From: a virus
Lineage: Duplodnaviria > Heunggongvirae > Uroviricota > Caudoviricetes
DNA length: 64,000 nucleotides
Reading direction: 5' to 3' (one strand)
IMG/VR virus record: IMGVR_UViG_3300025310_000004
Location: 59,759-123,758 of that record
Of this stretch, positions 14,501-30,177 are shown in pieces (positions within the stretch are counted from its first letter, which is position 1; the number at the start of each line of letters is the position of its first letter). The translations under genes were made by a program, and so were the position numbers. Under the pieces are notes generated by a model, which saw only the letters and a list, made by a program, of their open reading frames with translations, was not told where the DNA came from and did not search any database.

Positions 14501-15232
14501 CCCAACGGACGCATCTACGGCCTCGTTGCTCGGTGGGGCACTTGCCACATCGGCTTCTCGGATCGTTGTGTCCAGGTGCCGCGGCCTCACGACGGCTACG
14601 CCAACTTCCGTTGTGGTCACGTCCTGACCGCAGAGGGCACGTTGGTCAGCACCGGCCCCATCTACGCCGACACCGTGCACCCCAGCCTCAAGATGAGCGC
14701 CAGCGACGCCCAGGCGTTCTACGCTCACACGGGTTGCGCTCTGGGTGATGTCGTGCTCTACGAGGGCGAGTTCGGCATCTTGGCCGCTGGTGCGGTCAAG
14801 TCCGATGCTCCCATCGAGGCAGTCAACCGCCTGCGCGCTGCCGGGGTTTCCCCCGACTGGCGCACCATCGATCGCAACCTTGAGATCGTCGGCCTGCTGT
14901 CGGTCAACGTCTCCGGGTTCCCGGTGTCCACCGCCCTCGTTGCGGCGGCTTCGGAGATCGGTGGCATCGTTCCCACGGTCGGCGGTGAGCCGAAGTGGGA
15001 GGTCGATCGTGGTGAGTTCACGTCGCTGGTGGCCGCTGGCTCGCTGATGCCGTGCACCAACTGCGGATCGCACTCCATCGACAACGGGACGGCTCTGGCC
15101 CTCCTTGAGATGCTGAACGATCACGCCATCAAGATCGCCGAGTTGAGCGAGGTTGTGCGCCCCTACCGCATGGAGCGGCTGGTGTCTCGCTTGACCGAAC
15201 TCGGCATCGGGAGTGATCGCTCCGACAGTTAG
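11543..15232 (+). CDS. polyprotein-like fusion: 2H phosphoesterase domain, 2x ~130-aa repeats, U35 prohead protease, C-terminal domain
   Basis: HLTLAY and HITLCY H-x-T/S-x motifs at the N-terminus. Repeats FQAVAIHHTPTSDGPWDG / FKAVPSHDTATIDPPTFTEWDG. Protease block EGVLIVEGLPSGDGRMID...PLMLQ..H. Confidence 0.6.
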   Translation: MSGKRWLGVEAAAARLKASYAADQPDHSAGIMACVRPNDPGRFVVEGGTPEEEVHLTLAYFGKVTDEEWTDSARQQIAEVISAEIAADREPIHGEITAVTTFELAGEDEPPLVLLVDAPGLGEMRAALVKSVNSALGSDQEIKSNHDFMPHITLCYGANDSEEAFAEGLIGEKVTFDSVELVWGTESSVWPLGSNRSDAISDSEAENGLRFEDTNAPQFAEPGAQEGEMPYEIVEKHPECSAGDPYAVVKSDDGELMGCHPSRQDAEEQMAALYQAEEGKEEDSIEASADPLAIVIGDEPTRDERLAAIDEFVAPKNGAGGGGASDDEDEEDDSESEDEVEIEVEVKDSESDDEESDDEEDMDAEGSAEFQAVAIHHTPTSDGPWDGPANEARAKSGESEDYYRNIFAWQDPEGDPETKAAWRFIHHEVSEDGTPGAANLRACSTGIGVLNGGRGGTTIPAADREGVYRHLAAHLADAEKEVPELTSLEGGEAMEAESTAEFKAVPSHDTATIDPPTFTEWDGDEAAKRARSGETPDYYNKIYAWVDSNGDPTNKTSYKFPHHVVSESGEPGAAVVWAVHSSIAVIDDSTIPTSDYQGVYNHLARHLRDAGVEDIPELGEDVASIDEVRAAIATMRARFHAMAAKAVQEASVSKSDITASDDLALVGEVVRRWFESVAKSEAKAVESDAAFAADDEAAISDCPCHDGVLEDGATHTEGCPFAKCDDEMAEEAPEGEEMPPEDDEVVVGDFKRGDYEWEGVLIVEGLPSGDGRMIDEGALTWRELPVPLMLQTINAGGHDGAVIAGSIHEIERVGHEIVGRGYFDSGEAGQEAKRLLSEGTMRGVSADIDSVVAELRDESGADVAMEDVLFGDPGNVMEVLTEGRIMGATMTPFPAFQEAHLKVIGKDDVDEDMVLVASGSKADGEVWRFTSPYPLVGRGGESYKVESLVASGGTVTELPVIPVHPPLAWFAAEDPELDPNMPFTVFPNGRIYGLVARWGTCHIGFSDRCVQVPRPHDGYANFRCGHVLTAEGTLVSTGPIYADTVHPSLKMSASDAQAFYAHTGCALGDVVLYEGEFGILAAGAVKSDAPIEAVNRLRAAGVSPDWRTIDRNLEIVGLLSVNVSGFPVSTALVAAASEIGGIVPTVGGEPKWEVDRGEFTSLVAAGSLMPCTNCGSHSIDNGTALALLEMLNDHAIKIAELSEVVRPYRMERLVSRLTELGIGSDRSDS

Positions 15233-15624: not shown

Positions 15625-16868
15625 TGGCCGACAAGCGTCTGACCGAGGACGTTCCTCAGTTGAGCATCATCAGCGACGCCAACCGGGTCGTCGCTGAGAC
15701 AGAGCGGCGAACCGTCAAGCACCCCAAGGGGTGGGAGCCTGGCGTCGCGTTCGATGGCCAAAGCGGCGTGATCTCGACCGGCCCGCGCACTGCCCCCAGC
15801 GCCCCCAGCGACAACGACTGGCTCGATCTGCTCGCCATCTGGAACCTCGACCCTGAGGTCTACGAGGTTGACCCCGACTACAACCCGGAGTTCCGAGCGT
15901 GGGACGCCAACATCGGTGGTGGAGAGGTTCAGCGGTTCTACTACTACAAGGCTCGTATCCGCCTGCGCCACCAGCGCTATGGCATCGATATGGACGAGGT
16001 GCTCGATGGCATCCGTCGGTGGAAGCGCCTCAGGGCAGTGCCCACCGGACCTCACTCGCTAGTCGTTCCTGTGTCGGACTGGCAGATCGGCAAGGGTGAT
16101 GGCGACGGCGTGCGCGGCACTGTCGATCGGATCATGACCTCCTTCGATCGGCTCGAAGATGTCATCGATGACCTCAAGCGCTCCAAGATCGGCCTTGAGT
16201 GCCTCTACTTGATCGGCATGGGCGACCTGATCGAGCAGTGCACCGGCAACTACCCGGCCCAGGCGTTCACCACCGAGTTGAATCGGCGCGAGCAGTTGCG
16301 ACTCACCTTCCGCTGCATGCGCGATGGAGCAGCACGTCTCTCGCGCAAGATGGATCGCATGGTGGTCGGTGGGGTCGCTGGCAACCACGGCGAGAACCGC
16401 ATCGACGGCAAGTTGTATACGACGCCCGGAGACAACGACGACCTGTTGGTGATCGAGATGGTCGCCAACGCTCTCTTGGAGAACGACGAAGCGTTCGGCC
16501 ACGTTTCGTTCGCCATCCCCGAGGAGAAGTTGTGGCTCGTGCTGGACATCTCCGGCGTTCCCGTCGGCTTCACTCATGGCCACCAAGCAGGACGTGGGGC
16601 TACTCCGCAGCAGAAGCAGAAGGAGTGGCTCAAGGACATGGCCTTCGGTGACCACGACATCGGCCAGGCCCGCATCGTGGTGACGGGCCACTACCACCAC
16701 TTGTCGGTGATCGATCACGGTCCCAAGGTGCACATCCAGTGCCCAGCGATGGATGGTGGGTCGCAGTGGTGGATCAACCGCACCGGATCGGACTCCTCCC
16801 CCGGCACCGCTTGTTTCGTCGTATCATCGGAGTACCGAATGGGGTTCGATCATCTCCGAGTGGTGTGA
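15624..16868 (+). CDS. calcineurin-like metallophosphoesterase (Mre11/SbcD-type motifs) with N-terminal extension
   Basis: GMGDLIE, AGNHGE, GHYHH and GH motifs. Confidence 0.6.
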   Translation: MADKRLTEDVPQLSIISDANRVVAETERRTVKHPKGWEPGVAFDGQSGVISTGPRTAPSAPSDNDWLDLLAIWNLDPEVYEVDPDYNPEFRAWDANIGGGEVQRFYYYKARIRLRHQRYGIDMDEVLDGIRRWKRLRAVPTGPHSLVVPVSDWQIGKGDGDGVRGTVDRIMTSFDRLEDVIDDLKRSKIGLECLYLIGMGDLIEQCTGNYPAQAFTTELNRREQLRLTFRCMRDGAARLSRKMDRMVVGGVAGNHGENRIDGKLYTTPGDNDDLLVIEMVANALLENDEAFGHVSFAIPEEKLWLVLDISGVPVGFTHGHQAGRGATPQQKQKEWLKDMAFGDHDIGQARIVVTGHYHHLSVIDHGPKVHIQCPAMDGGSQWWINRTGSDSSPGTACFVVSSEYRMGFDHLRVV

Positions 16869-17092
16869 TGGCTGGCGCAAACATCTTGGATCGCCTACAA
16901 AGAGACGACCATGACTGGCGAGCGCTAGTCGTCCTAGGGGCGTGCACATGGGAGATCACTGCGATCCTGTCGGGACGCCTGCCAACGATCACCGCAGTGT
17001 GGCATCGCTTTCGGACCCACCGTCTTGGGCGGCTTGGACTCTGGCTCGCTTTGGGGTGGCTGGTGGAGCACCTGTTCGGGGAGAACCGTTGA
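16868..17092 (+). CDS. small membrane protein (2 TM)
   Basis: ATGA overlap with the upstream gene. Hydrophobic segments. Confidence 0.45.
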   Translation: MAGANILDRLQRDDHDWRALVVLGACTWEITAILSGRLPTITAVWHRFRTHRLGRLGLWLALGWLVEHLFGENR

Positions 17093-17218
17093 TGGTGCCT
17101 TGCCTTGTCTGTGGGCAGGAGTATGATCCCATCCGGCATCGCTGGCTGAGCCCGTGTTGCCATGCGAAGGACACATGCTGCGAGGGGGAAGCCTGCCCCC
17201 TCCCCGAAGGGAGCACCT

Positions 17219-17815
17219 ATGCCGGAAGTCTTGATCGGAGTGGCGGGGTACGCGGGAGCAGGCAAGGACACCCTGGCTGACCTGCTGGTCGCTCACTTCG
17301 GGTTCACCAAGATGGCCTTTGCTGACCCGATGCGCGACATGGCGGCTGCCATCGATCCCATCGTGGGCTACCTCGATACCGAGGACCCCAACGAGGACGA
17401 GATCATCCGCTACACCGACGCCATCGAGTGGCATGGCTACACCGACGCCAAGGTGCTCTACCCCGAGATCAGGCGCTTCCTGCAGCGCCTCGGCACCGAG
17501 GCTGGCCGCGAGGGGCCGCTGGGTCAGGACATCTGGGTGAACGTCGGCATGGAGCGTGCCGAGGCTTACGACCGAGTGGTGTTCGCCGACACACGGTTCC
17601 GCAACGAGGCCGAGGCGATCAAGGCTCGCGGTGGGCGCACCATCCGCATCGAGCGCCCCGGCGTGGTCGCCCCCAACGACCACACCTCCGAGCATGACCT
17701 GGCGAAGTGGGACTTCGATCTGCACGTCAACAACAAGGGCACCATCGCCGACATGCTCCCGCGCCTCGAAGGCTTCTTCGCCCGCCACTTCCCCAGGGTC
17801 ATGCGAATCTCCTAG
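17219..17815 (+). CDS. P-loop kinase, dNMP kinase-like
   Basis: Walker A GVAGYAGAGKDT near the N-terminus. Resembles T4 gp1-type deoxynucleoside monophosphate kinases. Confidence 0.6.
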   Translation: MPEVLIGVAGYAGAGKDTLADLLVAHFGFTKMAFADPMRDMAAAIDPIVGYLDTEDPNEDEIIRYTDAIEWHGYTDAKVLYPEIRRFLQRLGTEAGREGPLGQDIWVNVGMERAEAYDRVVFADTRFRNEAEAIKARGGRTIRIERPGVVAPNDHTSEHDLAKWDFDLHVNNKGTIADMLPRLEGFFARHFPRVMRIS

Positions 17816-17819
17816 CCCG

Positions 17820-17841
17820 TGTCGCACCCAGGTGCCAAGGT
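17820..17841 (+). promoter_or_regulatory. conserved promoter motif TGTCGCACCC...CAAGGT (copy 2)
   Basis: Followed 7 nt later by the ATG at 17849 of a 16-codon ORF (MKRYSSSEVYSYSSSS). Confidence 0.4.
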
Positions 17842-17897
17842 GGTCCCCATGAAGCGCTACTCCTCCTCCGAGGTCTATTCCTACTCATCGAGTAGTT

Positions 17898-17925
17898 GAG
17901 CGAGCGCGTTCTCTGGCGCTCGCTC
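17898..17925 (+). terminator. perfect 10-bp hairpin GAGCGAGCGC-gttctctg-GCGCTCGCTC
   Basis: Seen directly. No U-tract follows. Confidence 0.4.
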
Positions 17926-17931
17926 TCACGA

Positions 17932-18017
17932 GAGGGTGCGCCGGAGTTGGAGAGCCGGGTTTGGCTGTAAACCAGATGGCACTGCCTGAGGGGGTTCGAT
18001 TCCCTCCACCCTCACCA
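17932..18017 (+). tRNA. tRNA-Tyr(GTA), class II, CCA encoded
   Basis: Acceptor GAGGGTG/CACCCTC. Anticodon loop CTGTAAA. T-arm GGGGG-TTCGATT-CCCTC. Confidence 0.7.
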
Positions 18018-18077
18018 CTTAGGTCCGTGGCGGAAACACTGCTCCTAGGGCAGAGAAACCGCAGCGGACCTAAGCAT

Positions 18078-18164
18078 GGAAGGTCAACCAGACAGGCGTG
18101 CTGGGACTCCCTGCTAAGGAGTTCGCCCCTTCCGGGGGGTGGGGTTCGAGTCTTCGGCCTTCCG
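18078..18164 (+). tRNA. tRNA-Ser(GCT)
   Basis: Acceptor GGAAGGT/GCCTTCC. Anticodon loop CTGCTAA. Long variable arm. No CCA. Confidence 0.6.
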
Positions 18165-18247
18165 CCGGAACGAACGTACCGATCTAGTTTTCGAGTCAGG
18201 TCAGTGAGCCTGCTCCGTACTGGAATCGGTACGGTCGTGCCGGACAT

Positions 18248-18337
18248 GGAGAGTCAACCGGGCAGGCGTACCGGCGCTCGTTGGAAGCGAGTTGGCACCT
18301 TCACGGGTGTGGGGTTCGAGTCCTCGGCTCTCCGCCA
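18248..18337 (+). tRNA. tRNA-Ser(GGA), CCA encoded
   Basis: Acceptor GGAGAGT/GCTCTCC. Anticodon loop TTGGAAG. Confidence 0.6.
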
Positions 18338-18338
18338 A

Positions 18339-18426
18339 GGAGAGTGAACCGGACAGGCGTGCCGGGACCGTCTCGAAAGCGGATCGCCCCTCCGGGGGTG
18401 GGGTTCAAGTCCTCCGCTCTCCGCCA
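18339..18426 (+). tRNA. tRNA-Ser(CGA), CCA encoded
   Basis: Anticodon loop CTCGAAA. Same acceptor as Ser(GGA). Confidence 0.55.
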
Positions 18427-18427
18427 C

Positions 18428-18515
18428 GGAAGGTCAACCCGACAGGCGTGCGGGCACCGCCTTGAAAGCGGATGGGGGCATCAGCCCTGGGGTTCGAGTC
18501 CTCGGCCTTCCGCCA
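18428..18515 (+). tRNA. tRNA-Ser(TGA), CCA encoded
   Basis: Anticodon loop CTTGAAA. Acceptor GGAAGGT/GCCTTCC. Confidence 0.55.
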
Positions 18516-19008
18516 TCTCTCGCTTGGTGAGCCGAGCGACGTAGGAGTGGTCCATGCTCAACTCCTCAGCGATCGCCCGGTAGGTCCATCCCTGGGAGCG
18601 CAACTCCACCATGCGGCGCAAGTCGTCGGGCGTCGTCCGGCGATACCCGGAGAAGTTGTCTCCCGCCGCCTTGCGGGCTCGGTACTCCCGCATGTAGGTG
18701 GCCTTCGCCGATGTCGATGGCACCCTGGGGTTGGTGGGCCTCGGCTTGCGGGTCGCGACCTTCTTGACGGGAGGGCTTGCGGCCTGCTCTGTCTTGGTGG
18801 CCTTCTTCCTCCTGGCGCACACCGAACAAGCGCAGTCGTTGCGACCTCGACACCGATGATGTGAGCCGGAGAGGCAGTTGGTGCAGGTGATCACGCCGCC
18901 ACCATAGCAATCCACTGAGACATGTCGCACCCATGATGTATGGTGTGGACCCCGACGAAAGGAGGCCCCCATGATCGACCTGCACGCTCTATTCGCACCC
19001 GACGACAT
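18481..19008 (-). CDS. Zn-finger + C-terminal HTH (sigma-70 region-4/LuxR-like) regulator
   Basis: N-terminal Cys clusters, basic linker and WTYRAIAEELSMDHSYVARL. The 3' end overlaps tRNA-Ser on the opposite strand. Confidence 0.55.
   Translation of the reverse strand: MSSGANRACRSIMGASFRRGPHHTSWVRHVSVDCYGGGVITCTNCLSGSHHRCRGRNDCACSVCARRKKATKTEQAASPPVKKVATRKPRPTNPRVPSTSAKATYMREYRARKAAGDNFSGYRRTTPDDLRRMVELRSQGWTYRAIAEELSMDHSYVARLTKREMAEGRGLEPQG
18923..18944 (+). promoter_or_regulatory. conserved promoter motif TGTCGCACCC-N6-TATGGT (copy 3)
   Basis: This copy has a ~20-nt leader with GAAAGGAGG SD before the ATG at 18971. Confidence 0.45.
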
Positions 19009-19849
19009 CCAGGCCGCTCTGGACGCTGGGCACCTGCTCTCGCAGACCCACCCCGAGTTCGACCTGACGATCTACAACTACTCGTCGCTGTGCCAGATCA
19101 GCCGCGCCTGGACCCCGGTCACCTCGTCGTGCCGGGGCATGATCGTCGGTCCCGACGGCAAGGTGCTGGCTCGGCCGTTCCCGAAGCGCTACAATCATCA
19201 GATGGCGCGATTCTCAAGCACCCCCGAAGCCGCAGCGATCGATCACGAGTTCTTTGGGACCGGGAAGCCCGAGGCTGATTGGCTAGCCGGGCTTGTGGCG
19301 GCGGATGGCTGCATCAAGAACGAGAAGTTCTGGACCATCACACAGTCGGGGGATCACGGACTTGAGTTGATTGAAGCGGTCAGGGGCATGATCAACCATG
19401 GCCTGTCTGTTGGTCACTACAAGCCCAAGCGGGGACGAGTGGCTCATTCGATCTACGTTCCGTCGGCCCAGATGGTGGCAGACCTGGCGACCAACTACAG
19501 CATCACGCCCCGTAAGAGCCTCACGTTGACTCCCCCCACATTGGACGAAAGTCGGTTCTCTAACTTCCTGAGGGGCTACATCGACGGAGACGGCACCGTG
19601 GGGAGATACTCGGTGGGGCGCTGTCCGAACTACCTGATCGTATGCTTGGTCGGAACCGAGGACTTCATCGAATCGGTACACCACCTCAACGAGTCCGGGC
19701 GCGTGAGGGAACTCAAGAGGGCCAAGAATACTTGGGAGATCAGGTTCAACGGGAATCACGCCGTTGACTTCTGTCGTCGGACATATGCGGCTGGGAGCGA
19801 CCTTCCTGTCACGACCAAGGCGAAGAAGGCTTTGGGAGCAATCGGATGA
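18971..19849 (+). CDS. LAGLIDADG homing endonuclease fused to a duplicated RNA-ligase N-terminal segment
   Basis: The first ~100 aa parallel the N-terminus of ORF 19846 (HPEFDL.IYNY...CRG.IV). Then LAGLVAADGCI and LRGYIDGDGTV dodecapeptide motifs. Confidence 0.6.
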   Translation: MIDLHALFAPDDIQAALDAGHLLSQTHPEFDLTIYNYSSLCQISRAWTPVTSSCRGMIVGPDGKVLARPFPKRYNHQMARFSSTPEAAAIDHEFFGTGKPEADWLAGLVAADGCIKNEKFWTITQSGDHGLELIEAVRGMINHGLSVGHYKPKRGRVAHSIYVPSAQMVADLATNYSITPRKSLTLTPPTLDESRFSNFLRGYIDGDGTVGRYSVGRCPNYLIVCLVGTEDFIESVHHLNESGRVRELKRAKNTWEIRFNGNHAVDFCRRTYAAGSDLPVTTKAKKALGAIG

Positions 19850-20940
19850 ATCACATTGGCGAGTTCTTGGATTTGGCCTCCCTGGATGCCCACATCGAAG
19901 CGGGCAACATCTCTCGATCCCCACATCACGAATTCGACCTCTACGTCCTGAACTACACGAACCAGGCGCAGTTCTCTCGCTCGTGGGACAACGAGACGCT
20001 TAATTGCCGGGGCCTGATTGTTGACTCGGGCGGTCTGGTCGTTGCTCGAAGTTGGGCCAAGTTCTTCAACCACACCGAGACGGCCGTCCCCAAGTACGCC
20101 CTGACCACGCCGCCCATCGTCACCGAGAAGATGGATGGCTCGCTGGGGATCATCTACCAGCGTCCCGATGGGCGCTTCGCCGTCGCCACGCGTGGCTCGT
20201 TCGCGTCTGACCAGGCCGTCTGGGCAACGCAGTGGCTCACCGTCGAGATGCCGGGGTTCATCCAGCCTGCTGGTGTGACCACCCTGGTGGAGATCATCTA
20301 CCCCGAGAACCGGATCGTTGTGGACTACGGCGACCGTGCGGAGTTGGTGCTGCTGGGTGCCATCAACATCGCCACCGGAGCCGACATCCCCCTGTGGGAG
20401 ATCGACTGGTGGCCTGGTGCTCGCGCCGAGATGCACACCGGCATCGGCCACATGGACGACGTGTACCGCTTCGCGACGGGCAACGAGAAGGAGAACGATG
20501 AGGGCATCGTGGCGGTCTGGTACCGCCCCGGCGAGCCGTCGTTCCGGCTCAAGGTGAAGCACCCCGAGTACGTCCGGCTCCACCGGATCATCACGGGCAT
20601 CAATACCAAGCGCGTCTGGGAGGTGCTGGCTTCTGGCGGCGACTTCTACGACGTACTGGATCGTGTCCCCGACGAGTTCTACGGCTGGGTCAAGGGGGTC
20701 ATCACTGACCTCCGCAACCAGTACCAGGACATCGAGGATGCGGTCTATGAGCAGTTCCAGATCATCTGCCTCAACACCGACGACGGCGACCGCAAGGGCT
20801 TCGCCGCCAAGGCCAAGGCCACGCCGTGGCCGGGGTTGATGTTCGCCCTGCTCGATGGCAAGGACATCGAGCGTGCCATCTGGGACATGATCAAGCCCAA
20901 GGCCGAGAAGCCCTTCGCTGACCAGGGTGAGGACACCTGA
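19846..20940 (+). CDS. RNA ligase (Rnl-type nucleotidyltransferase)
   Basis: KMDGSLG motif I lysine. Sits beside a Pnkp gene. Confidence 0.7.
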   Translation: MNHIGEFLDLASLDAHIEAGNISRSPHHEFDLYVLNYTNQAQFSRSWDNETLNCRGLIVDSGGLVVARSWAKFFNHTETAVPKYALTTPPIVTEKMDGSLGIIYQRPDGRFAVATRGSFASDQAVWATQWLTVEMPGFIQPAGVTTLVEIIYPENRIVVDYGDRAELVLLGAINIATGADIPLWEIDWWPGARAEMHTGIGHMDDVYRFATGNEKENDEGIVAVWYRPGEPSFRLKVKHPEYVRLHRIITGINTKRVWEVLASGGDFYDVLDRVPDEFYGWVKGVITDLRNQYQDIEDAVYEQFQIICLNTDDGDRKGFAAKAKATPWPGLMFALLDGKDIERAIWDMIKPKAEKPFADQGEDT

Positions 20941-21006
20941 TCCTCCCCTGGTCAGTGTCGCAGTGGTGTGCTACTATCACGCCACGCCAAGAGAGAGGAG
21001 ACACCC

Positions 21007-22157: not shown

Positions 22158-22180
22158 GTGTCGCACCCGTGTGCTAGGGT
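22158..22180 (+). promoter_or_regulatory. conserved promoter motif GTGTCGCACCCGTGTGCTAGGGT (copy 4)
   Basis: TGcTAGGGT extended -10, with the ATG at 22188 seven nt downstream (leaderless 28-codon ORF). Confidence 0.5.
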
Positions 22181-22307
22181 CGTAGACATGTTCAGGTCCA
22201 GCGACTTCCGCGAACGAGATCAGCGCCGCTCCCGGCGTTGGCGTCGCGATGCGCGACCTGAGGAGCGCAACTAACCCGTACCCCTCATATCCGGGTGCGG
22301 GAATCAT

Positions 22308-22378
22308 CCCCCCGGAGACATAGGGTGCGTCACCTGCCTCTCAAGCAGGAGAATCGGGTTCGAGTCCCGGCGGGGGGA
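22308..22378 (+). tRNA. tRNA-Glu(CTC)
   Basis: Acceptor CCCCCCG/CGGGGGG. Anticodon loop CTCTCAA. Confidence 0.6.
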
Positions 22379-22381
22379 CTA

Positions 22382-22464
22382 GGGAGTGTGGTGGTCGCGT
22401 GAGCACCATCCCGAGTCAGGAACAACACCAGTGGATCGGTGCCTGACGAGTTGGAGCACTCCCT
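22382..22464 (+). ncRNA. atypical tRNA-like element (acceptor and D-stem pair, no canonical T-loop or anticodon loop)
   Basis: GGGAGTG...CACTCCC 7-bp acceptor, with internal helices GTCAGG/CCTGAC and CACC/GGTG. Confidence 0.3.
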
Positions 22465-22473
22465 CACAACCTA

Positions 22474-22549
22474 GGTCCGTTGGTGTAGTGGTCTTGCACG
22501 TTGGCTTGTCACGCCAAAGGAATTGGGGGTTCGATTCCCCTACGGACCG
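22474..22549 (+). tRNA. tRNA-Asp(GTC)
   Basis: Acceptor GGTCCGT/ACGGACC. Anticodon loop TTGTCAC. Confidence 0.7.
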
Positions 22550-22599
22550 CGTAACTCCCTGGTGAGCCTCTCACCGAAGCGCCCAGGGAGAGAGAACAA

Positions 22600-22671
22600 G
22601 CCCCAGGAGACGTATGGCGAGTCGCCGGACTTTCAATCCGGTTGTAGCGGGTTCGATTCCCGTCTGGGGTA
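22600..22671 (+). tRNA. tRNA-Glu(TTC)
   Basis: Anticodon stem CCGGA/TCCGG. Anticodon loop CTTTCAA. Confidence 0.6.
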
Positions 22672-22684
22672 CGCAACAACACAT

Positions 22685-22754
22685 AGGCCAGCCACAGGGT
22701 GGACGGGAGTCTCCAAAACTCCTAGGCAGGGTTCGAGTCCCTGTTGGCCTGCCA
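22685..22754 (+). tRNA. tRNA-Trp(CCA) with shortened D-arm, CCA encoded
   Basis: Anticodon stem GGAGT/ACTCC. Anticodon loop CTCCAAA. Only 14 nt between acceptor and anticodon stem. Confidence 0.5.
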
Positions 22755-22755
22755 A

Positions 22756-22832
22756 GCGCCCGTGGTCTAATGGATTAGGACACTTGACTACGAATCAAGA
22801 GGCTGCAGGTTCGAGTCCTGCCGGGCGCGCCA
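22756..22832 (+). tRNA. tRNA-Arg(ACG), CCA encoded
   Basis: Acceptor GCGCCCG/CGGGCGC. Anticodon loop CTACGAA. Confidence 0.75.
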
Positions 22833-22833
22833 A

Positions 22834-22906
22834 CCCGATGTAACTCAGCGGAGAGAGTGCCGTCTTGCGAAGGCGGAAGTCGCAGGTTCGACTCCTGCCA
22901 TCGGGG
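22834..22906 (+). tRNA. tRNA-Arg(GCG)
   Basis: Acceptor CCCGATG/CATCGGG. Anticodon loop TTGCGAA. Confidence 0.6.
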
Positions 22907-22922
22907 CTTGACAACAGAACTT

Positions 22923-22997
22923 CCCCCGTTGGTGAAACGGAGATCACGGCGTCGTCCGAAGGCGCAGTTCCAGGTTCGATTCCTGGGTGGGGGGCCA
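22923..22997 (+). tRNA. tRNA-Arg(CCG), CCA encoded
   Basis: D-stem GTGA/TCAC. Anticodon loop GTCCGAA. Confidence 0.55.
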
Positions 22998-23075
22998 CCG
23001 GGTAGGGGTGACGGCTTGGAAGCACGCCGGTCTGGGGGACCGGAGGACGCGGGTTCAAATCCCGCCTACCCGACC
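22998..23075 (+). tRNA. tRNA-Pro(GGG), CCA encoded
   Basis: Acceptor CGGGTAG/CTACCCG. Anticodon loop CTGGGGG. Confidence 0.6.
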
Positions 23076-23079
23076 AGAA

Positions 23080-23445
23080 CTACTTGCGACGAAGGTACTT
23101 CCAGACTCGTGAGTCCGAATCAAACAGGTGCTTGAGGAACCATGCGAAGAAGGTCACGACTCCACCAGCGATGATCGCCGTCCAGACCGGAGACTCTCCG
23201 GCGACGTACTGGATGTGCTCGGTGAGAGTGTCGCCGCCGCTGTCGTTGATGAGCGCTGGGACCTCGATGGCGAAGAAGCCGACGACGGCGCTCACCAGCC
23301 AGATCACCCAGGCGATCGTCCAGCCCTTGCGAGGCTGATCCCCCTCGGGAGTGGGCGGCTTCTTGGCAAGGAAGGCCATGCGCCCCACGAAGGCCGCTCC
23401 ACCCAGAAGGGCTACCGTGAGCAGGGTGGTGGCGACGACATCCAT
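23080..23445 (-). CDS. small membrane protein (3-4 TM)
   Basis: Hydrophobic ORF. The long N-terminus would overlap tRNA-Arg, so the shorter MDVV start is preferred. Confidence 0.45.
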   Translation of the reverse strand: MDVVATTLLTVALLGGAAFVGRMAFLAKKPPTPEGDQPRKGWTIAWVIWLVSAVVGFFAIEVPALINDSGGDTLTEHIQYVAGESPVWTAIIAGGVVTFFAWFLKHLFDSDSRVWKYLRRK

Positions 23446-23462
23446 AGCGCAAGCGTACTCTC

Positions 23463-23534
23463 GCCCTCGTGGTGGAAGGGATACCACGGCTCTCTCCTAA
23501 AGAGCAGGTCTGGGTTCGAGTCCCAGCGAGGGCG
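23463..23534 (+). tRNA. tRNA-Arg(CCT)
   Basis: Acceptor GCCCTCG/CGAGGGC. Anticodon loop CTCCTAA. Confidence 0.7.
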
Positions 23535-23540
23535 CTACAA

Positions 23541-23612
23541 GCCTCCGTCGTCCAACGGATAGGACACCCGCCCTCTAAGCGGTGGATGCGGGTTCGACTC
23601 CTGCCGGGGGCG
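23541..23612 (+). tRNA. tRNA-Arg(TCT)-like (C33, weak anticodon stem)
   Basis: Anticodon loop CCTCTAA. The alternative register CTCTAAG would give a CTA anticodon. Confidence 0.4.
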
Positions 23613-23614
23613 CT

Positions 23615-23635
23615 GTCGCACTCAAGTAGTACGAT
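23615..23635 (+). promoter_or_regulatory. promoter motif variant TGTCGCACTC...TAGTACGAT (copy 5)
   Basis: GTG start at 23643, seven nt after TACGAT. Confidence 0.4.
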
Positions 23636-24538: not shown

Positions 24539-24560
24539 TGTCGCACCCGGCTGCTATGTT
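24539..24560 (+). promoter_or_regulatory. conserved promoter motif TGTCGCACCC-N6-TGcTATGTT (copy 6)
   Basis: ATG at 24567, six nt after the -10. Confidence 0.5.
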
Positions 24561-25273: not shown

Positions 25274-25295
25274 TGTCGCACCCAGGTGCTAAGGT
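25274..25295 (+). promoter_or_regulatory. conserved promoter motif TGTCGCACCC-N6-TGcTAAGGT (copy 7)
   Basis: Upstream of a 27-codon ORF (ATG ~25340, AGGAGG SD) and the tRNA cluster. Confidence 0.45.
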
Positions 25296-25439
25296 GATCG
25301 AAGAACGCATCGAGCGTTGAGCCACAGGAGGTGACCCAAATGCGAGCGTGTACGAGCATCACAACTGAGATGACCGGCGCTGGCATGGGGATTCCCGTAG
25401 GCTCCGGTCGATTTACCGGCTGACGCTGGTAGCCCAGGT

Positions 25440-25515
25440 CGCGGCTGGGTGAAACGGTTTCCACGCCTGGCTCATAACCAGGAGACATCCGGTTCGACTC
25501 CGGTAGCCGCCACCA
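25440..25515 (+). tRNA. tRNA-Met(CAT), initiator-like (C1·C72 mismatch, A73), CCA encoded
   Basis: Acceptor CGCGGCT/AGCCGCC. Anticodon stem CCTGG/CCAGG. Anticodon loop CTCATAA. Confidence 0.55.
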
Positions 25516-25648
25516 ACCTGCCAGACCGATGATGGGACGCCCACCGAATGACCCGGAGGCGAAACCCGGAGGTCTGACTCCCGACGAGATGGTGCAGGCC
25601 ACTTGTCGGACTCGGGTGAGGGGGCTTCGGCCCCCCACCCGACACCAT

Positions 25649-25722
25649 GGGGCAGCATGTACCAAGGCGGGCGACAGTGCTTTGCAAGCACCGTGTGGTG
25701 GGTTCGATTCCCACCTGCTCCA
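25649..25722 (+). tRNA. tRNA-Ala(TGC) with G3·U70
   Basis: Acceptor GGGGCAG/CTGCTCC. Anticodon loop TTTGCAA. T-arm GTGGG-TTCGATT-CCCAC. Confidence 0.6.
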
Positions 25723-25781
25723 CTGCAGCAGGGTCACCTGCGAGCAAGCGATCATTGACAACTGAATAGGTCTACACAGAT

Positions 25782-25849
25782 GGGGCACGCGCAGGGCGCA
25801 CGCGTCGCTGGCAGCGAAGCATCGCGGGGTTCGAGTCCCCGGTGCTCCA
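25782..25849 (+). pseudogene. tRNA-Ala-like pseudo-tRNA lacking an anticodon loop
   Basis: Acceptor GGGGCAC/GTGCTCC with G3·U70 and a canonical T-arm. Only 36 nt separate them: helix TCGCT/AGCGA with a 3-nt loop. Confidence 0.4.
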
Positions 25850-26029
25850 CTGTGGGGAAGGCCGACGGACAAGGCTTAGGCCCGTGAGAGCGTCAGTACG
25901 AACGTGGGAGGACTTCGGTCCGCTTCACCACGCGGAGGCGTTCAAGCCGGGGTGGGTAGCGAGTGGTCGAGTTCTTCCCCCACCAAGGTCGTGGTACGGC
26001 TCCGGGCAACCGGGCCGCCACGGCCTCGT

Positions 26030-26104
26030 GCGGCATAGGTGTTACGGGTTGCATACCTGCCTTCCAAGCAGAGGGACGGGGTTCGAGTCCCCGATGCCGC
26101 TCCA
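26030..26104 (+). tRNA. tRNA-Gly(TCC), CCA encoded
   Basis: Acceptor GCGGCAT/ATGCCGC. Anticodon loop CTTCCAA. Confidence 0.65.
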
Positions 26105-26217
26105 ACCCCATGGATCGGAGTCGCTACCCGCTCCATGCGTCGCCCTACTGCTGACGGGGGCGTGAAGGTGATACCCCACGAGAGTGTGCACGCTCGACCG
26201 GGGCACGTCGGCTCCAA

Positions 26218-26292
26218 GCGTTCAAGGTGTTCCTGGCTGCACGCCACCTTGCCATGGTGGAGGAGGGGGTTCGAGTCCCCCTGGACGCTCCA
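26218..26292 (+). tRNA. tRNA-Gly(GCC), CCA encoded
   Basis: Anticodon stem CCACC/GGTGG. Anticodon loop TTGCCAT. Confidence 0.7.
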
Positions 26293-26293
26293 A

Positions 26294-26369
26294 GGTTCTC
26301 AGGTGTCCGGTTGGATCGGCACGACGGTCTGAAAAGCCGTAGGGCTGGGTTCGAGTCCCAGGGGAACCA
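26294..26369 (+). tRNA. tRNA-Phe(GAA)
   Basis: Anticodon stem ACGGT/GCCGT. Anticodon loop CTGAAAA. Confidence 0.7.
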
Positions 26370-26374
26370 CACAA

Positions 26375-26414
26375 GGTGTTTCCACTGTTTCCTCTGGCGG
26401 AAACAGGAAACACC
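26375..26414 (+). other. long imperfect hairpin in tRNA spacer (GGTGTTTCC..GGAAACACC)
   Basis: About 16 bp of pairing around the loop tctggc. Confidence 0.4.
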
Positions 26415-26421
26415 GAGGACA

Positions 26422-26499
26422 TGCACGGGTAGCGCCAAGCGGCAAAGGCACCTCCTTCACACGGAGGGGATCGTGGGTTCGAGTCCCACCCCGTGTACC
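26422..26499 (+). tRNA. tRNA-Val(CAC), CCA encoded
   Basis: Anticodon stem CCTCC/GGAGG. Anticodon loop TTCACAC. Confidence 0.7.
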
Positions 26500-26500
26500 A

Positions 26501-26577
26501 AGCGCCGGTGCCCGAGCGGCCTAAGGGGGCGGCCTGCAAAGCCGTACTACGGGGGTTCAAATCCCCCCCGGCGCTCC
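26501..26577 (+). tRNA. tRNA-Cys(GCA), CCA encoded
   Basis: Acceptor GCGCCGG/CCGGCGC. Anticodon loop CTGCAAA. Confidence 0.65.
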
Positions 26578-26682
26578 ATCGCAAGAACTCCCACCCGAGC
26601 ACTCGGGGGTGGATCGAGTAACAAGGACCCATCGTCCCCCGCTTCGGCCGGATCGGTGCTAGGAACCCACTGAGTGCGTCAC

Positions 26683-26762
26683 CGGGGCGTATACCCTCCG
26701 TCTGATAAGCGGTAGAAAGGTTAGTTGGTGACACGGAGGTTCAAATCCTCCCGCCCCGACCA
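26683..26762 (+). tRNA. atypical tRNA (possible Ile-GAT loop CTGATAA; D-region too short, long extra region), CCA encoded
   Basis: Acceptor CGGGGCG/CGCCCCG and a canonical T-arm. The internal region does not fold canonically. Confidence 0.3.
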
Positions 26763-26763
26763 T

Positions 26764-26925
26764 GGTGAGAGACAGGAAGGTACGAGGGTTCGATTCCCTC
26801 ACGCTCCACTCGTGGGGCGTCCGGTGGACTCCGGTGAAGTCGGTTCGATTCCGACGCCCCGTAGGGGTGATGGTCACGAATAGGGTCGCTCCCGCCGAGG
26901 TGGTTCGACTCCACCACTCTCACCA
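26764..26925 (+). ncRNA. three tandem tRNA-like T-arm/acceptor minihelices enclosed by an 8-bp terminal helix, ending CCA
   Basis: T-arms at ~26784, 26851 and 26905, spaced 54-67 nt apart. 5' GGTGAGAG pairs with 3' CTCTCACC. Confidence 0.4.
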
Positions 26926-26931
26926 GATCAT

Positions 26932-27008
26932 GCACGGGTGGCCAAGTCTGGTAAGGCCCCTCCATGACACGGAGGAAACCGCGGGTTCAAATCCCGCCTC
27001 GTGCACCA
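26932..27008 (+). tRNA. tRNA-Val(GAC), CCA encoded
   Basis: Anticodon loop ATGACAC. T-arm GCGGG-TTCAAAT-CCCGC. Confidence 0.65.
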
Positions 27009-27009
27009 C

Positions 27010-27083
27010 TGCGCCGAAGTCGATTGGCGAGACAGCGGCCTCATAAGCCGTGGTAGAGGGTTCGATTCCCTCCGGCGCGACCA
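27010..27083 (+). tRNA. tRNA-Met/Ile2(CAT), CCA encoded
   Basis: Anticodon stem GCGGC/GCCGT. Anticodon loop CTCATAA. Confidence 0.6.
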
Positions 27084-27084
27084 C

Positions 27085-27159
27085 GCACCCAAGGTCTAGA
27101 CGGCGAGACGGCGGCATGGTAAGCCGCAGAGCGGGGTTCAAGTCCCCGTGGGTGCTCCA
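27085..27159 (+). tRNA. tRNA-Thr(GGT), CCA encoded
   Basis: Acceptor GCACCCA/TGGGTGC. Anticodon loop ATGGTAA. Confidence 0.7.
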
Positions 27160-27160
27160 C

Positions 27161-27235
27161 GCACTGGAAGCATGAATGGTGATGCGGCTGTCTCGTAAAC
27201 AGCAGAACCGGGTTCGATTCCCGGCCGGTGCTCCA
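27161..27235 (+). tRNA. tRNA-Thr(CGT), CCA encoded
   Basis: D-stem GCAT/ATGC. Anticodon loop CTCGTAA. Confidence 0.75.
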
Positions 27236-27995: not shown

Positions 27996-28017
27996 TGTCA
28001 CAGCCATCCGCTATGGT

Positions 28018-28991: not shown

Positions 28992-29013
28992 GTGTCGCAC
29001 CCGTGTGCTAGGG
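28992..29013 (+). promoter_or_regulatory. conserved promoter motif TGTCGCACCCGTGTGCTAGGGT (copy 8)
   Basis: Identical to copy 4. ATG at 29021 of a 33-codon ORF, then the Leu tRNA cluster. Confidence 0.5.
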
Positions 29014-29158
29014 TCGTAGACATGTACCGATTGCTCCCCCTCCTACGGCCACTCAAGGCCAAGCCTGGGCATCAGCGCCCGCGCCATGCTGCGCGACCGC
29101 TGAATCCCCAGCAACAGGGGTAGAGCACCTTCTCTCCCCCTGTGGCCTGAGAAGGTCT

Positions 29159-29242
29159 TGCGGGGGTGGCGTAACTGGCAGCCGCGCCGGGTTTAGGTCC
29201 CGGTGGCCGAGAGGTCGTGAGGGTTCGAGTCCCTCCTCCCGC
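29159..29242 (+). tRNA. tRNA-Leu(TAG)
   Basis: Anticodon stem CCGGG/CCCGG. Anticodon loop TTTAGGT. 15-nt variable arm. Confidence 0.65.
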
Positions 29243-29246
29243 ACCG

Positions 29247-29333
29247 AGTGCCCGTGGCGGAACTGGTAGACGCGTTGTCCTCAGAAGGCAATGTCCGCAA
29301 GGGCGTGAGGGTTCGACTCCCTCCGGGCACACC
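29247..29333 (+). tRNA. tRNA-Leu(CAG), CCA encoded
   Basis: Acceptor GTGCCCG/CGGGCAC. Anticodon loop CTCAGAA. Confidence 0.7.
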
Positions 29334-29334
29334 A

Positions 29335-29420
29335 AGTCAGCATGGTGGAATGGTAGACACGCCGTCTTGAGGGGGCGGTGGCCGCAAGGTCGTGAGGGTT
29401 CGACTCCCTCTGCTGACACC
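29335..29420 (+). tRNA. tRNA-Leu(GAG), CCA encoded
   Basis: Acceptor GTCAGCA/TGCTGAC. Anticodon loop TTGAGGG. Confidence 0.7.
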
Positions 29421-29445
29421 AAACGCAAGAAACGCAACAAGATCA

Positions 29446-29527
29446 AGCCCGAGTGGCGGAACTGGCAGACGCGCTCGTCTCAAGAACGAGTGACCTAGGT
29501 CGTGTGGGTTCGACTCCCACCTCGGGC
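29446..29527 (+). tRNA. tRNA-Leu(CAA)
   Basis: Anticodon stem CTCGT/ACGAG. Anticodon loop CTCAAGA. Confidence 0.7.
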
Positions 29528-29560
29528 ACGCAAGGCTCTTTGACAACAGAAGATCACCGA

Positions 29561-29585
29561 TACAACGGGACGGGGTGACGGCTTG
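29561..29585 (+). repeat. duplicated 5' fragment of tRNA-Pro(CGG) (CAACGGGACGGGGTGACGGCTTGG)
   Basis: 24/25 identity with 30021-30045 at the start of the intact tRNA-Pro downstream of the HNH gene. Confidence 0.6.
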
Positions 29586-29600
29586 GATTAGACGGCAACG

Positions 29601-29606
29601 CTATAA
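29601..29606 (+). promoter_or_regulatory. perfect TATAAT -10 box 8 nt upstream of HNH ATG
   Basis: Seen directly. The surrounding sequence has lower GC. Confidence 0.4.
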
Positions 29607-29614
29607 TCTAATCC

Positions 29615-30037
29615 ATGACGATCACCCAGAAGTGCAAGCGCTGCGGAAAGCGGCGTGAACACGGACTCCGACGCAATGGCAGTGCTCAGGCGTACTGCCG
29701 TCAGTGTCAGAGGGAATACAGCAAGAGTCACTACGAAACCAACAAGGGTTCGTACAACGGCAGGAGGTTGAAGCACCAACGGCAGCGACGCCAAGACGGA
29801 TACAAGATCACGAACTCGGCCAAGGATCGCCCTTGCGTCGATTGCGGGGTCAAGTACCCGACCTACGTCATGCAGTTCGATCATCGGGACCCGACGACCA
29901 AGAACTTCACGATTGCCACCCATGTTCGCAATGGTGGCTCCTTGAAGGCGCTGATCGCCGAGATCGAGAAGTGTGACGTGGTTTGTGCGAATTGTCATGC
30001 CGAAAGGACGCATCAACAACGCAACGGGACGGGGTGA
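29615..30037 (+). CDS. HNH homing endonuclease
   Basis: MQFDHRDP and CANCHAERTH HNH motif. The gene has lower GC than its flanks. Confidence 0.8.
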   Translation: MTITQKCKRCGKRREHGLRRNGSAQAYCRQCQREYSKSHYETNKGSYNGRRLKHQRQRRQDGYKITNSAKDRPCVDCGVKYPTYVMQFDHRDPTTKNFTIATHVRNGGSLKALIAEIEKCDVVCANCHAERTHQQRNGTG

Positions 30038-30102
30038 CGGTTTGGTTGCACGCCGCGTTCGGGACGCGGAGGTCGCGGGTTCAAATCCCGCCGTCCCGAC
30101 CA
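30025..30102 (+). tRNA. tRNA-Pro(CGG), CCA encoded
   Basis: Acceptor CGGGACG/CGTCCCG. Anticodon loop TTCGGGA. The 5' end overlaps the HNH stop. Confidence 0.65.
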
Positions 30103-30103
30103 T

Positions 30104-30176
30104 CGGAAGGTGGTGACAAGCGCACAGCGGCCGTTGGGGCCGCAGGACCGGGGGTAGCGTCCCGGCTTTCCGACCA
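30104..30176 (+). pseudogene. cloverleaf tRNA-like with non-canonical loops (T-loop GGTAGCGT, anticodon loop CGTTGGG), CCA encoded
   Basis: Acceptor CGGAAGG/CTTTCCG. All four helices are present. Confidence 0.35.
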
Positions 30177-30177
30177 A

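Follow-up and report, generated by a model that had tools for sequence, protein, structure and literature searches.

What does a short sequence block do when it recurs along a phage genome at a constant distance from a -10 box, and which genes does it serve? The question is raised by a stretch of metagenomic viral DNA of 64,000 nucleotides (nt) (IMG/VR record IMGVR_UViG_3300025310_000004, positions 59,759 to 123,758); this whole stretch is called the window here, and coordinates are window positions, position 1 being its first letter. The copy at positions 22158-22180 (GTGTCGCACCCGTGTGCTAGGGT) belongs to a repeated motif that is a genuine phage promoter family. Four of its members lead into tRNA gene arrays by way of a short open reading frame (ORF) whose codons largely mirror the tRNAs encoded downstream. 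Our reading, to which we assign a probability of roughly 0.6, is that these sites are host-type extended -10 promoters equipped with the block, and that they feed leaders which ribosomes would sense as a "checklist" and which would thereby tune tRNA output.

A promoter motif phased to its -10 box

The exact block TGTCGCACCC is found at 4484, 17820, 18923, 22159, 24539, 25274, 28993 and 31340, always on the plus strand, and these eight copies compare with 0.23 expected from dinucleotide shuffles. When the block (with at most two mismatches) is combined with a gap of six nucleotides (N6) and a TANNNT box, 12 sites are observed against 0.20 expected, with a maximum of one in 60 shuffles. A relaxed, family-level pattern brings the number in the window to 16, adding 20956, 30564 and 49345 together with 17820. 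A preliminary description of this DNA had counted about ten copies. All ten sites that it named are present within 1 nt, including one with a single mismatch at 23614 and a weaker variant whose block lies at 33073 (TGTCTCACTC), but the total is higher, with 16 copies in the window and three more in contig L047 (L-numbers denote metagenome contigs). This contig supplies 5.7 kb of the same genome upstream of the window, and its copies carry the block TGTCACACCC or CGTCACACCC. Contig L046 supplies 6.4 kb downstream, encodes tail genes and holds no motif copies.

All 16 window copies are co-directional with the next gene, and the two on the minus strand, at 4478 and 8345, each head a leftward gene cassette. 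The long structural genes hold no copy, except for a weak one at 49345 that precedes an HNH endonuclease gene.

The promoter interpretation offered in the preliminary description is supported by the fixed spacing to TANNNT, by an extended -10 element (TGn) in nine of the 16 copies, by the shared orientation of motif and gene, and by conservation in related phages. The gap between block and -10 had been given as 5-6 nt; it is always exactly 6 nt. A TANNNT-type -10 is present at every copy named earlier except 17820, where the box reads CAAGGT, and in 15 of the 16 window copies overall. Most copies lack a TTGACA-type -35 hexamer at 16-18 bp, and only 33073 has a 17-bp spacer. Copies that serve tRNA operons carry TTGCGC, TTGATC or TTGACC 3 nt 5′ of the block, which leaves a 19-bp spacer to the -10. 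No TTGNNN hexamer accompanies 17820 in this genome, its ortholog in L134 has TTGATT, and the hexamer of L052 and L058 directly adjoins the block, so that the spacer there is 16 bp. A generic promoter scan of the window recovered none of the motif copies.

The source of the window is a large metagenomic phage of Actinobacteria without a close cultured relative. A megablast search with the 17-32 kb portion against 50,697 phage records gave no match, and the terminase found only three remote matches by tblastn (32-40% identity). Scanning IMG/VR for the exact motif returned 42 contigs with one chance-like match each and, by this route, no multi-copy relatives; a portal-based locus search in the same database returned two marginal loci only. 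Proteins of the window are also present on Logan contigs of 79.8 and 44.8 kb from metagenome SRR5581334, and the longest contig with portal-like and RlaP proteins measures 171,330 bp. Related contigs were reached through RlaP homologs and share protein identities of 79% (L050/L051), 75-76% (L049 and L134), 57% (L056), 50% (L058) and 48% (L052/L053, with a GC content of 0.535). The nearest protein homologs belong to Streptomyces and Arthrobacter phages, which, together with a WhiB gene and a high GC content (about 0.62 in the window), points to an actinobacterial host.

At 10 of the 16 window copies, an ATG or GTG (RTG) begins 6-7 nt past the -10 and leaves no room for a Shine-Dalgarno sequence, an arrangement that we estimate from base composition to arise by chance at a rate of about 0.06 per site. 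The leaderless starts proposed in the preliminary description are therefore indirectly supported at these copies, but five others have a 5′ untranslated region of about 20-40 nt with a strong Shine-Dalgarno sequence and 33073 has no start codon nearby. Independent gene calls on metagenome contigs begin precisely at 4512 (an exonuclease) and 24567 (RlaP), and relatives keep this placement of RTG after the -10, including L076 and L079, where the block is absent. In mycobacteria, leaderless translation requires an RTG at +1, which by itself suffices (PMC4633059), and this makes the same inference reasonable here. That about two thirds of the copies start leaderless mRNAs is thus well supported, as far as sequence can tell.

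The architecture is kept at orthologous positions in L049, L050, L051, L134, L056, L058 and L052, where the sites precede the same small ORFs, the tRNA arrays and the genes for RNA ligase, polynucleotide kinase-phosphatase (Pnkp) and RlaP. The N6 gap is fixed and the orientation single in more than 60 sites across seven genomes. Pairwise identity between orthologous sites is 0.75 in the block, 0.77 in the extended -10 (N6 positions 4-6) and 0.80 in the -10, whose positions 1, 2 and 6 reach 0.98, as against 0.40-0.46 in the 20 nt upstream, at N6 positions 1-3 (0.46) and in the discriminator, although the block-conservation figures are partly circular in that the relaxed search required GTC and TA...T. 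The preferred block differs by genome, being TGTCGCACCC in the window, TGTCACCCCT in L134, CGTCACACCC in L049 and L050, CGTCATGGCC in L056, TGTCACACCC in L058 and TGTCACCCCC in L052; genome-specific variants include TGTCACCCC and CGTCATGG as well as TGTCGCACCC and CGTCACACCC.

The 10-nt block is asymmetric, with the family consensus YGTCRCMCCC. If the RTG is the transcription start, the block would lie at about -28 to -19, downstream of the -35 position and upstream of the extended -10. Because it is asymmetric and strictly phased with the -10, it appears to act as a promoter-class element rather than as an operator for a dimer. That one regulator binds the block, as the preliminary description suggested, is a possibility that the sequence neither supports nor contradicts. 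The copies are best read as extended -10 promoters for host sigma-A that carry, further upstream, a block specific to the clade; a factor acting with RNA polymerase most likely recognises this block. The sole recognisable transcription factor near the motif set is a WhiB-family protein with a basic C-terminal tail (3048-3332, minus strand), which is encoded downstream of the 4478 minus-strand promoter, is conserved in relatives, and can be named as the block-reading factor only speculatively. No families resembling MotA or AsiA are among the Pfam and PHROG matches of the scanned window proteins, in an analysis that covered about 76 kb out of at most 171 kb of genome. Taken alone, the promoter family is ordinary, a further member of the phage promoter classes.

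On a 158-kb contig from a distant relative, L052, a copy with the architecture TGTCACCCCC-N6-TAGGGT stands directly 5′ of a phage transfer-messenger RNA (tmRNA) gene predicted by ARAGORN (2904-3356 of that contig), which suggests that the promoter class also serves other stable RNAs.

Short leaders that mirror the tRNA arrays

The preliminary description overlooked at least 37 tRNA genes and the RNA-repair genes interleaved with the motif copies, and what begins after 17820, 22159 and 28993 is in each case no ordinary protein gene but a very short ORF that mirrors a tRNA array. ARAGORN predicts 37 tRNA genes, all on the plus strand between 17932 and 31159 and grouped in four arrays; 30 of the 37 score above the Rfam threshold. 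Interleaved with the arrays are genes for a T4-type RNA ligase, Pnkp, an RlaP nucleotidyltransferase, an RF-1 domain protein and a metallophosphoesterase, and a Ro/TROVE gene (33605-35404) follows the last array. Read from the sequence, the motif copies are promoters of this tRNA and RNA-repair island and of the early cassettes next to it.

A separate motif promoter and, after it, a short ORF precede each array, and all of these elements lie on the plus strand. The promoter at 17820-17841, with its CAAGGT box, is followed by leader A (17849-17899; MKRYSSSEVYSYSSSS), a predicted leaderless ORF in which 11 of 15 codons can be read by the four tRNAs of array A (17932-18515), Tyr(gta), Ser(gct), Ser(gga) and Ser(tga). 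The promoter at 22159-22180 has TTGCGC 3 nt 5′ of its block and a 19-bp spacer to the -10. It serves leader D (22188-22274; MFRSSDFRERDQRRSRRWRRDARPEERN), likewise leaderless, which mirrors Glu, Asp, Arg, Pro and Trp ahead of array D (22308-23613: Glu, Asp, Glu, three Arg and Pro, then after a gap Arg(cct) and Arg(tct), plus a Trp homolog). Another TTGCGC stands 3 nt 5′ of the block in the promoter at 25274-25295, where a 5′ untranslated region of about 38 nt with an AGGAGG Shine-Dalgarno sequence precedes leader F (25340-25423; MRACTSITTEMTGAGMGIPVGSGRFTG). This leader mirrors Met, Ala, Gly, Cys, Thr, Val, Ile and Phe, and array F (25440-27235) encodes Met, Ala, two Gly, Val, Cys, Val, Met and two Thr, plus a sub-threshold Phe. 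Finally, the promoter at 28993-29014, with TTGATC 3 nt 5′ of its block, precedes the leaderless leader H (29022-29123; MYRLLPLLRPLKAKPGHQRPRHAARPLNPQQQG), which contains the Leu codons TTG, CTC, CTA and CTG together with codons for Pro, Gln, His, Asn and Lys, and array H (29160-31159: four Leu, two Pro, Gln, His, Gln, two Asn and three Lys). The four leaders have 15-33 codons, end 16-36 nt 5′ of the first tRNA, and have positional orthologs in eight other genomes.

We scored a codon as readable if it pairs with a tRNA of its own array by Watson-Crick or standard wobble rules. By this measure 61 of the 100 leader codons are readable, compared with 22.8±4.1 when codons are re-dealt among the four leaders and 21.7±4.0 when leaders are drawn from phage codon usage; the maximum in 20,000 trials under either null was 39. 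Conversely, a cognate codon is present in the corresponding leader for 35 of 37 tRNAs, where 20.5±3.4 would be expected and the maximum was 33. The correspondence is confined to the ORF frame, as the two other reading frames contain 17 and 11 readable codons. It extends to isoacceptors as well: leader H has an exact own codon for each of the four Leu tRNAs, and leader D for Arg(cct), Arg(ccg), Glu(ttc) and Glu(ctc). Two further tRNA homologs, Trp(cca) at 22689-22754 and Phe(gaa) at 26298-26369, were missed by ARAGORN and score just below the Rfam threshold (23.5 and 28.9 bits). They are 97% and 91% identical to tRNAs of L049, and their codons, TGG and TTT, occur in the matching leaders.

The same pattern recurs in the relatives. 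When eight of them were tested singly, the observed number of readable codons was reached in 0-4 of 5000 re-deals, and the weaker tRNA coverage of L058 in 106 of 5000; in these genomes the leader ORFs, though positional orthologs of the window leaders, were in part selected by taking the upstream ORF with the best score. In the pooled data from nine genomes, a leader's own array can read 426 of 766 codons (56%), as against about 10% for other arrays of the same genome, and 243 of 259 tRNAs (94%) are represented in their own leader. Across relatives the peptide sequence drifts and the composition is kept, which is the expectation for sensory leaders. The strong Shine-Dalgarno sequence of class F leaders is conserved in all genomes, supporting the view that the leaders are translated. 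Unrelated tRNA-rich phage contigs from the same search contain no mirroring ORFs (p 0.1-0.9), and in the cultured Streptomyces phage Wakanda, which shares the RNA ligase, the tRNAs are scattered and not grouped by amino acid.

Three of the four leaders are followed by a hairpin close to the stop codon, with z-scores here obtained by folding each sequence against its shuffles. The GC-rich hairpin of leader A (17898-17925) begins within the stop codon, ends 6 nt 5′ of tRNA-Tyr and has no U tract (z = -5.0). That of leader D (22275-22301) begins directly past the stop codon and ends 6 nt 5′ of tRNA-Glu (z = -5.1), and that of leader H (29123-29159) fills the space between the stop codon and tRNA-Leu (z = -3.0). 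Among the genomes, all 13 class A and D leaders examined and most of class H have such a hairpin, with its start at -3 to +2 nt relative to the stop codon and its end 0-9 nt before the first tRNA. The z-scores lie between -2.3 and -5.2, and the hairpin sequence varies from genome to genome. The sequence reveals a single ribosome-dependent difference: the hairpin would be open with a ribosome at the stop codon and closed with one stalled upstream. When the RNA was refolded with the ribosome footprint masked, the freed 3′ arm paired with the 5′ strand of the tRNA in only five of 11 cases, too inconsistent a result to support a model. As regards Rho loading, leaders A and H are C-rich and G-poor, and D and F are not.

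Several other features of these operons were observed. The promoter regions 22159-22191 and 28993-29025 are identical over 33 nt (TGTCGCACCCgtgtgcTAGGGTcgtagacATGt), and their orthologs in relatives differ from each other, suggesting recent gene conversion or duplication of a promoter cassette. A gap of 350 nt in array F (26580-26930), where relatives carry tRNA-Ile, contains at least four T-arm-like motifs and a weak tmRNA-like match (26684-26811, 25 bits), and possibly represents degenerate or non-canonical tRNA-like genes. Two further small ORFs border the Asn/Lys tRNAs: a Lys/Arg/Asn-rich, Cys-containing ORF of 50 amino acids (30592-30744), leaderless from the 30564 promoter and just 5′ of the Asn and Lys tRNAs, and a Lys/Arg-rich ORF of 43 amino acids (31179-31310), preceded by a Shine-Dalgarno sequence and located past the last tRNA-Lys. 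Both mirror tRNAs less clearly than the four main leaders.

Models for the leaders and the block

In the mechanism that we favour, each tRNA operon would open with a short translated leader holding about one codon per downstream tRNA species, and the ribosome translating it would report on the availability of each listed tRNA. A ribosome stalled at the codon of a scarce tRNA would never arrive at the stop-codon hairpin, a ribosome that runs through would melt it, and the state of the hairpin would set the operon's yield of mature tRNA. The switch could work through protection from Rho or RNases, or through correct folding or processing. We infer that transcription begins at the RTG, that the leaders are translated and that ribosome progress sets tRNA yield. 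Negative feedback, in which scarcity of any listed tRNA would raise output, is the favoured direction because it alone makes functional sense of a one-codon-per-tRNA list amid tRNA-repair genes. A more specific proposal is that the virus thereby runs a supply feedback: a tRNA depleted by host anticodon nucleases or by codon-usage mismatch would stall the ribosome and raise output from precisely that operon in which the missing tRNA is encoded. We hold this proposal tentatively, at slightly less than even odds.

Several observations weigh against this mechanism, in addition to the partial circularity of the block figures and the choice of some leaders in relatives by score. The sign of regulation cannot be derived from the sequence. 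There is no terminator/antiterminator pair, the hairpins lack a U tract, and a scan for intrinsic terminators performed at chance level. Class F leaders, which have a Shine-Dalgarno sequence, have no stop-codon hairpin. Gain and loss of tRNAs across genomes does not track leader codons significantly (Fisher p = 0.19), a comparison that is uninformative with so few variable cases. Pfam and PHROG scans of the small early proteins for a DNA-binding domain returned WhiB alone, and no block-binding protein was found. Moreover, leaders and arrays persist in L076 and L079, the remotest of the relatives, where the block is absent and plain -35/-10 promoters are used, so the block is dispensable for the leader mechanism.

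This last observation also speaks for a rival view, in which the block would be the operator of a phage or host repressor that shuts the class off later, with the extended -10 promoters working alone with host RNA polymerase. An extended -10 (TGn in nine of 16) can make a -35 dispensable, so that basal activity has no obvious need of the block. The block also overlaps the footprint of RNA polymerase, and its conservation within the genome exceeds that of a typical -35. An inverted half-site also lies beside two copies (4469-4493 and 31325-31349), both of which the preliminary description had presented as inverted repeats. The second is a dyad of 6+6 nt (GCGACAccagTGTCGC) whose minus-strand half has no -10, but the first consists of two divergent promoters, each with its own -10, and the half-sites are separated by unequal gaps (5 nt versus 4 nt). 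For a dimeric repressor the idea was rejected, as the block has no dyad symmetry and has inverted partners at two sites only, with differing gaps and one pair being divergent promoters. More generally, one orientation and one spacing to the -10 in more than 60 sites of seven genomes are more typical of a promoter element, and the Pfam and PHROG scans found no repressor-like helix-turn-helix protein near the sites. We consider an operator function unlikely, though it deserves more weight than any of the alternatives that follow. One of these takes the block as the -35 of an ECF41-type alternative sigma factor and the whole set as its regulon. The ECF41 promoter signature is TGTCACA-n16-CGTC (PMC3426412), the family consensus TGTCACA matches its -35, and at 31340 a CGTC follows at n15. 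However, a CGTC, TGTT, TGTC or CGTT box lies 15-17 nt past the 7-mer in only two of the 16 copies, whereas TANNNT exactly 9 nt past it is near-universal and conserved in orthologs, and an ECF-type start would fall inside ORFs, past the conserved RTG. We rejected this model on spacing, the required -10 being present in two of 16 copies, and regard it as the least probable of all.

Other explanations concern the leaders themselves. They may be translated without being scarcity sensors, acting as self-licensing (positive) elements or as 5′ ends that load ribosomes or stabilise the RNA. In the self-licensing version, codons of the operon's own array would keep the leader translatable after destruction of host tRNAs, and the ribosome at the stop codon would melt the hairpin and so permit read-through or processing; in a variant, the hairpin may merely shield the released leader RNA from 3′ exonucleases, as it would form the 3′ end of that RNA after an RNase P cut at the first tRNA. 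The position of the hairpin at the stop codon suits this idea, since the simplest effect of translating the full leader would be to open it, and the absence of a terminator/antiterminator pair is also in its favour. However, phage tRNAs are thought to remedy the lack of a tRNA, and under that condition positive feedback has no obvious benefit. One-codon-per-tRNA coverage (243 of 259) fits a sensor of individual species better than a generic ribosome-loading site, and class F leaders keep the mirror without the hairpin. We judge such a role improbable. Far less credible still is the view that the ORFs are untranslated and their match to the arrays a by-product, with ATG simply a preferred initiating sequence and the tRNA operons constitutive. 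The ORFs are indeed very short, and efficient leaderless translation in the host is assumed. Yet the mirror is specific to frame (61 versus 17 and 11) and to array (56% own versus about 10% other), recurs in nine diverged genomes, and is accompanied by the strong, conserved Shine-Dalgarno sequence of class F and by stop codons in a fixed relation to the hairpin. We know of no by-product at the sequence level that would give in-frame codons for neighbouring tRNAs.

Neighbouring sites and known systems

The remaining motif copies mostly serve protein-coding genes of the island and its surroundings, and leaderless or Shine-Dalgarno-led starts are predicted for nearly all. Upstream of the island, the promoter at 4457-4478 (minus strand; TGTCGCACCT-N6-TATCAT) is the divergent partner of 4484 and drives a Shine-Dalgarno-led gene for 61 amino acids (4427 to 4242) in a leftward cassette that ends with WhiB. 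Its partner at 4484-4505 (plus strand; TGTCGCACCC-N6-TAGGGT) has a GTG at 4512, 6 nt past the -10, which opens the leaderless PD-(D/E)XK exonuclease gene (4512-5375). At 8324-8345 (minus strand; TGTCACACCC-N6-TAAAGT), a start with a Shine-Dalgarno sequence opens a cassette running from 8291 to 5326 that encodes a 243-amino-acid protein, HIRAN, SSB and others.

Further copies, all on the plus strand, lie among the tRNA arrays. The promoter at 18923-18944 precedes a Shine-Dalgarno-led gene resembling nucleases and RNA ligases (18971-19849), then the RNA ligase gene (19846-20940). Back to back with it, at 18901-18922 on the minus strand, is a motif-like site (TGTCTCAGTG-N6-TATGGT, with a GTG 6 nt further) that faces a 400-nt unannotated gap after tRNA-Ser and could be an antisense promoter or a chance occurrence. 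A weaker copy at 20956-20977 (TGTCGCAGTG-N6-TACTAT), with an orthologous site in L050, precedes Pnkp, whose ATG is at 21007. The copy at 23614-23635 (TGTCGCACTC-N6-TACGAT) begins one base past a tRNA-Arg and leads to a leaderless GTG at 23643 for a 254-amino-acid protein without assigned function. Leaderless ATGs follow at 24567 for the RlaP-type nucleotidyltransferase (PF10127; promoter 24539-24560), at 28024 for the metallophosphoesterase (promoter 27996-28017; TGTCACAGCC-N6-TATGGT), and at 30592 after a variant within array H (30564-30585; CGTCACAGCG-N6-TACTAT). Past the last array, the copy at 31340-31361, preceded by the dyad described above, has a leaderless ATG at 31369 for a membrane protein of 85 amino acids, followed by Band_7 and dCMP deaminase genes.

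The variant at 33073-33094 (plus strand) reads TTGCAG-1 nt-TGTCTCACTC-N6-TAGAGT and has an ortholog at 14456 in L050. Between this promoter and the Ro gene, positions 33095-33620 contain three or four modules with T-arms (GGTTCGAnTCC) and GTTGCG...GGGTTACTTC repeats. Their Rfam matches are weak (tRNA-Sec-like, 26 bits; YrlA, 15.6 bits), and they look like tandem Y-RNA-like genes beside a phage Ro protein. The weak variant at 49345-49366 (plus strand; CGTCGCAGGC-N6-TACGAT) lies in the structural module, and the ATG of its HNH endonuclease gene is at 49374, 7 nt past the -10.

The tRNA island itself is located between two structural blocks. To one side are two giant ORFs, 8454-11546 (1030 amino acids) and 11543-15232 (1229 amino acids), which have no Pfam match except for an N-terminal 2H/2′-5′ RNA ligase domain in the second. 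Their PHROG matches are to portal and MuF-like/head-protein families, although head and tail genes form a block of their own at 40-60 kb. After a tape measure protein of 2236 amino acids, a protein of 1348 amino acids (60459-64000, continuing into L046 at 16793-20839) carries an S-layer homology (SLH) domain. This hints at a host with an S-layer or a pyruvylated cell-wall polymer, which would be unusual among well-studied actinobacterial phage hosts.

As a promoter class, the motif resembles T4 middle promoters, in which a MotA box near -30 is combined with a host -10 and MotA and AsiA appropriate the sigma factor. In both cases a phage box at a fixed distance from a host -10 replaces or supplements the -35 and defines a temporal class, but here the block, at about -28 to -19, is nearer the -10, a -35-like hexamer remains upstream of it in some copies, and the host is actinobacterial. 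Other actinobacteriophages also carry asymmetric repeats of about 10-13 bp, in many copies and in one orientation relative to transcription. Cluster A stoperators are repressor sites that are not phased with a -10, and cluster K start-associated sequences lie at ribosome-binding sites; both are unrelated in sequence to the present motif, which is phased to the -10 and linked to leaderless starts.

The leaders have their closest parallels in leader-peptide attenuation, as in trpL, hisL, pheL, thrL and the ilv/leu operons of enterobacteria and corynebacteria. There, too, a 5′ short ORF is rich in codons that report on the operon's product, and the position of the ribosome relative to a hairpin by the stop codon is the likely signal. 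However, classical attenuators control enzymes of amino-acid biosynthesis through runs of codons for one amino acid, whereas the genes here are those of the tRNAs themselves and each leader holds about one codon for each of 4-14 tRNA species. Moreover, the present element is viral and has neither a terminator/antiterminator pair nor a U tract, and leaderless mRNAs are predicted for three of the four leaders. In mycobacteria, leaderless polycysteine short ORFs act as cysteine-responsive attenuators through ribosome stalling (Canestrari et al., 10.1101/834739). These share with the phage leaders an actinobacterial setting, a sensory ORF at the 5′ end of the transcript, a stalled ribosome that alters downstream RNA structure, and one logic applied to several independent operons (a "ribulon"). 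The mycobacterial system senses a single amino acid and unmasks the ribosome-binding site of a protein gene, whereas in the phage the downstream RNAs are untranslated tRNAs and many species would be sampled. T-box riboswitches, none of which was found by an Rfam search of the window, similarly monitor tRNA from a cis-acting 5′ leader by codon-anticodon recognition and adjust translation-related genes, but in T-boxes the RNA itself binds the tRNA, with no ribosome involved, the charging state of a single tRNA is sensed, and the genes controlled are those for aminoacyl-tRNA synthetases or amino-acid metabolism.

Phage tRNAs are usually viewed as constitutive, fixing gaps in codon usage or replacing tRNAs destroyed by host defences, and to our knowledge the control of phages' own tRNA genes is essentially unknown. 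Full-text searches, which left most subscription journals uncovered, returned nothing on leader ORFs upstream of phage tRNA genes, nor on the motif string. The tRNA-mirroring leaders look like a previously undescribed viral way to sense and adjust a virus's own tRNA supply and, as interpreted here, are a new form of ribosome-mediated attenuation. If this is true, they would be the first known case of a leader-peptide sensor acting on tRNA genes, and also the first such sensor to follow many tRNA species together, within an island that also encodes the tRNA-repair enzymes RNA ligase, polynucleotide kinase-phosphatase and RlaP, as well as Ro with Y-like RNAs. The promoter set provides probable leaderless extended -10 promoters for actinobacterial hosts, and the block offers a handle for finding the factor that times expression of the tRNA and RNA-repair island. 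The leaders suggest a natural design for a multi-tRNA biosensor. More broadly, a leader that lists the tRNAs of its operon is a concrete and testable mechanism for supplying tRNA on demand, and would carry ribosome-mediated attenuation beyond amino-acid metabolism to the tRNA pool.

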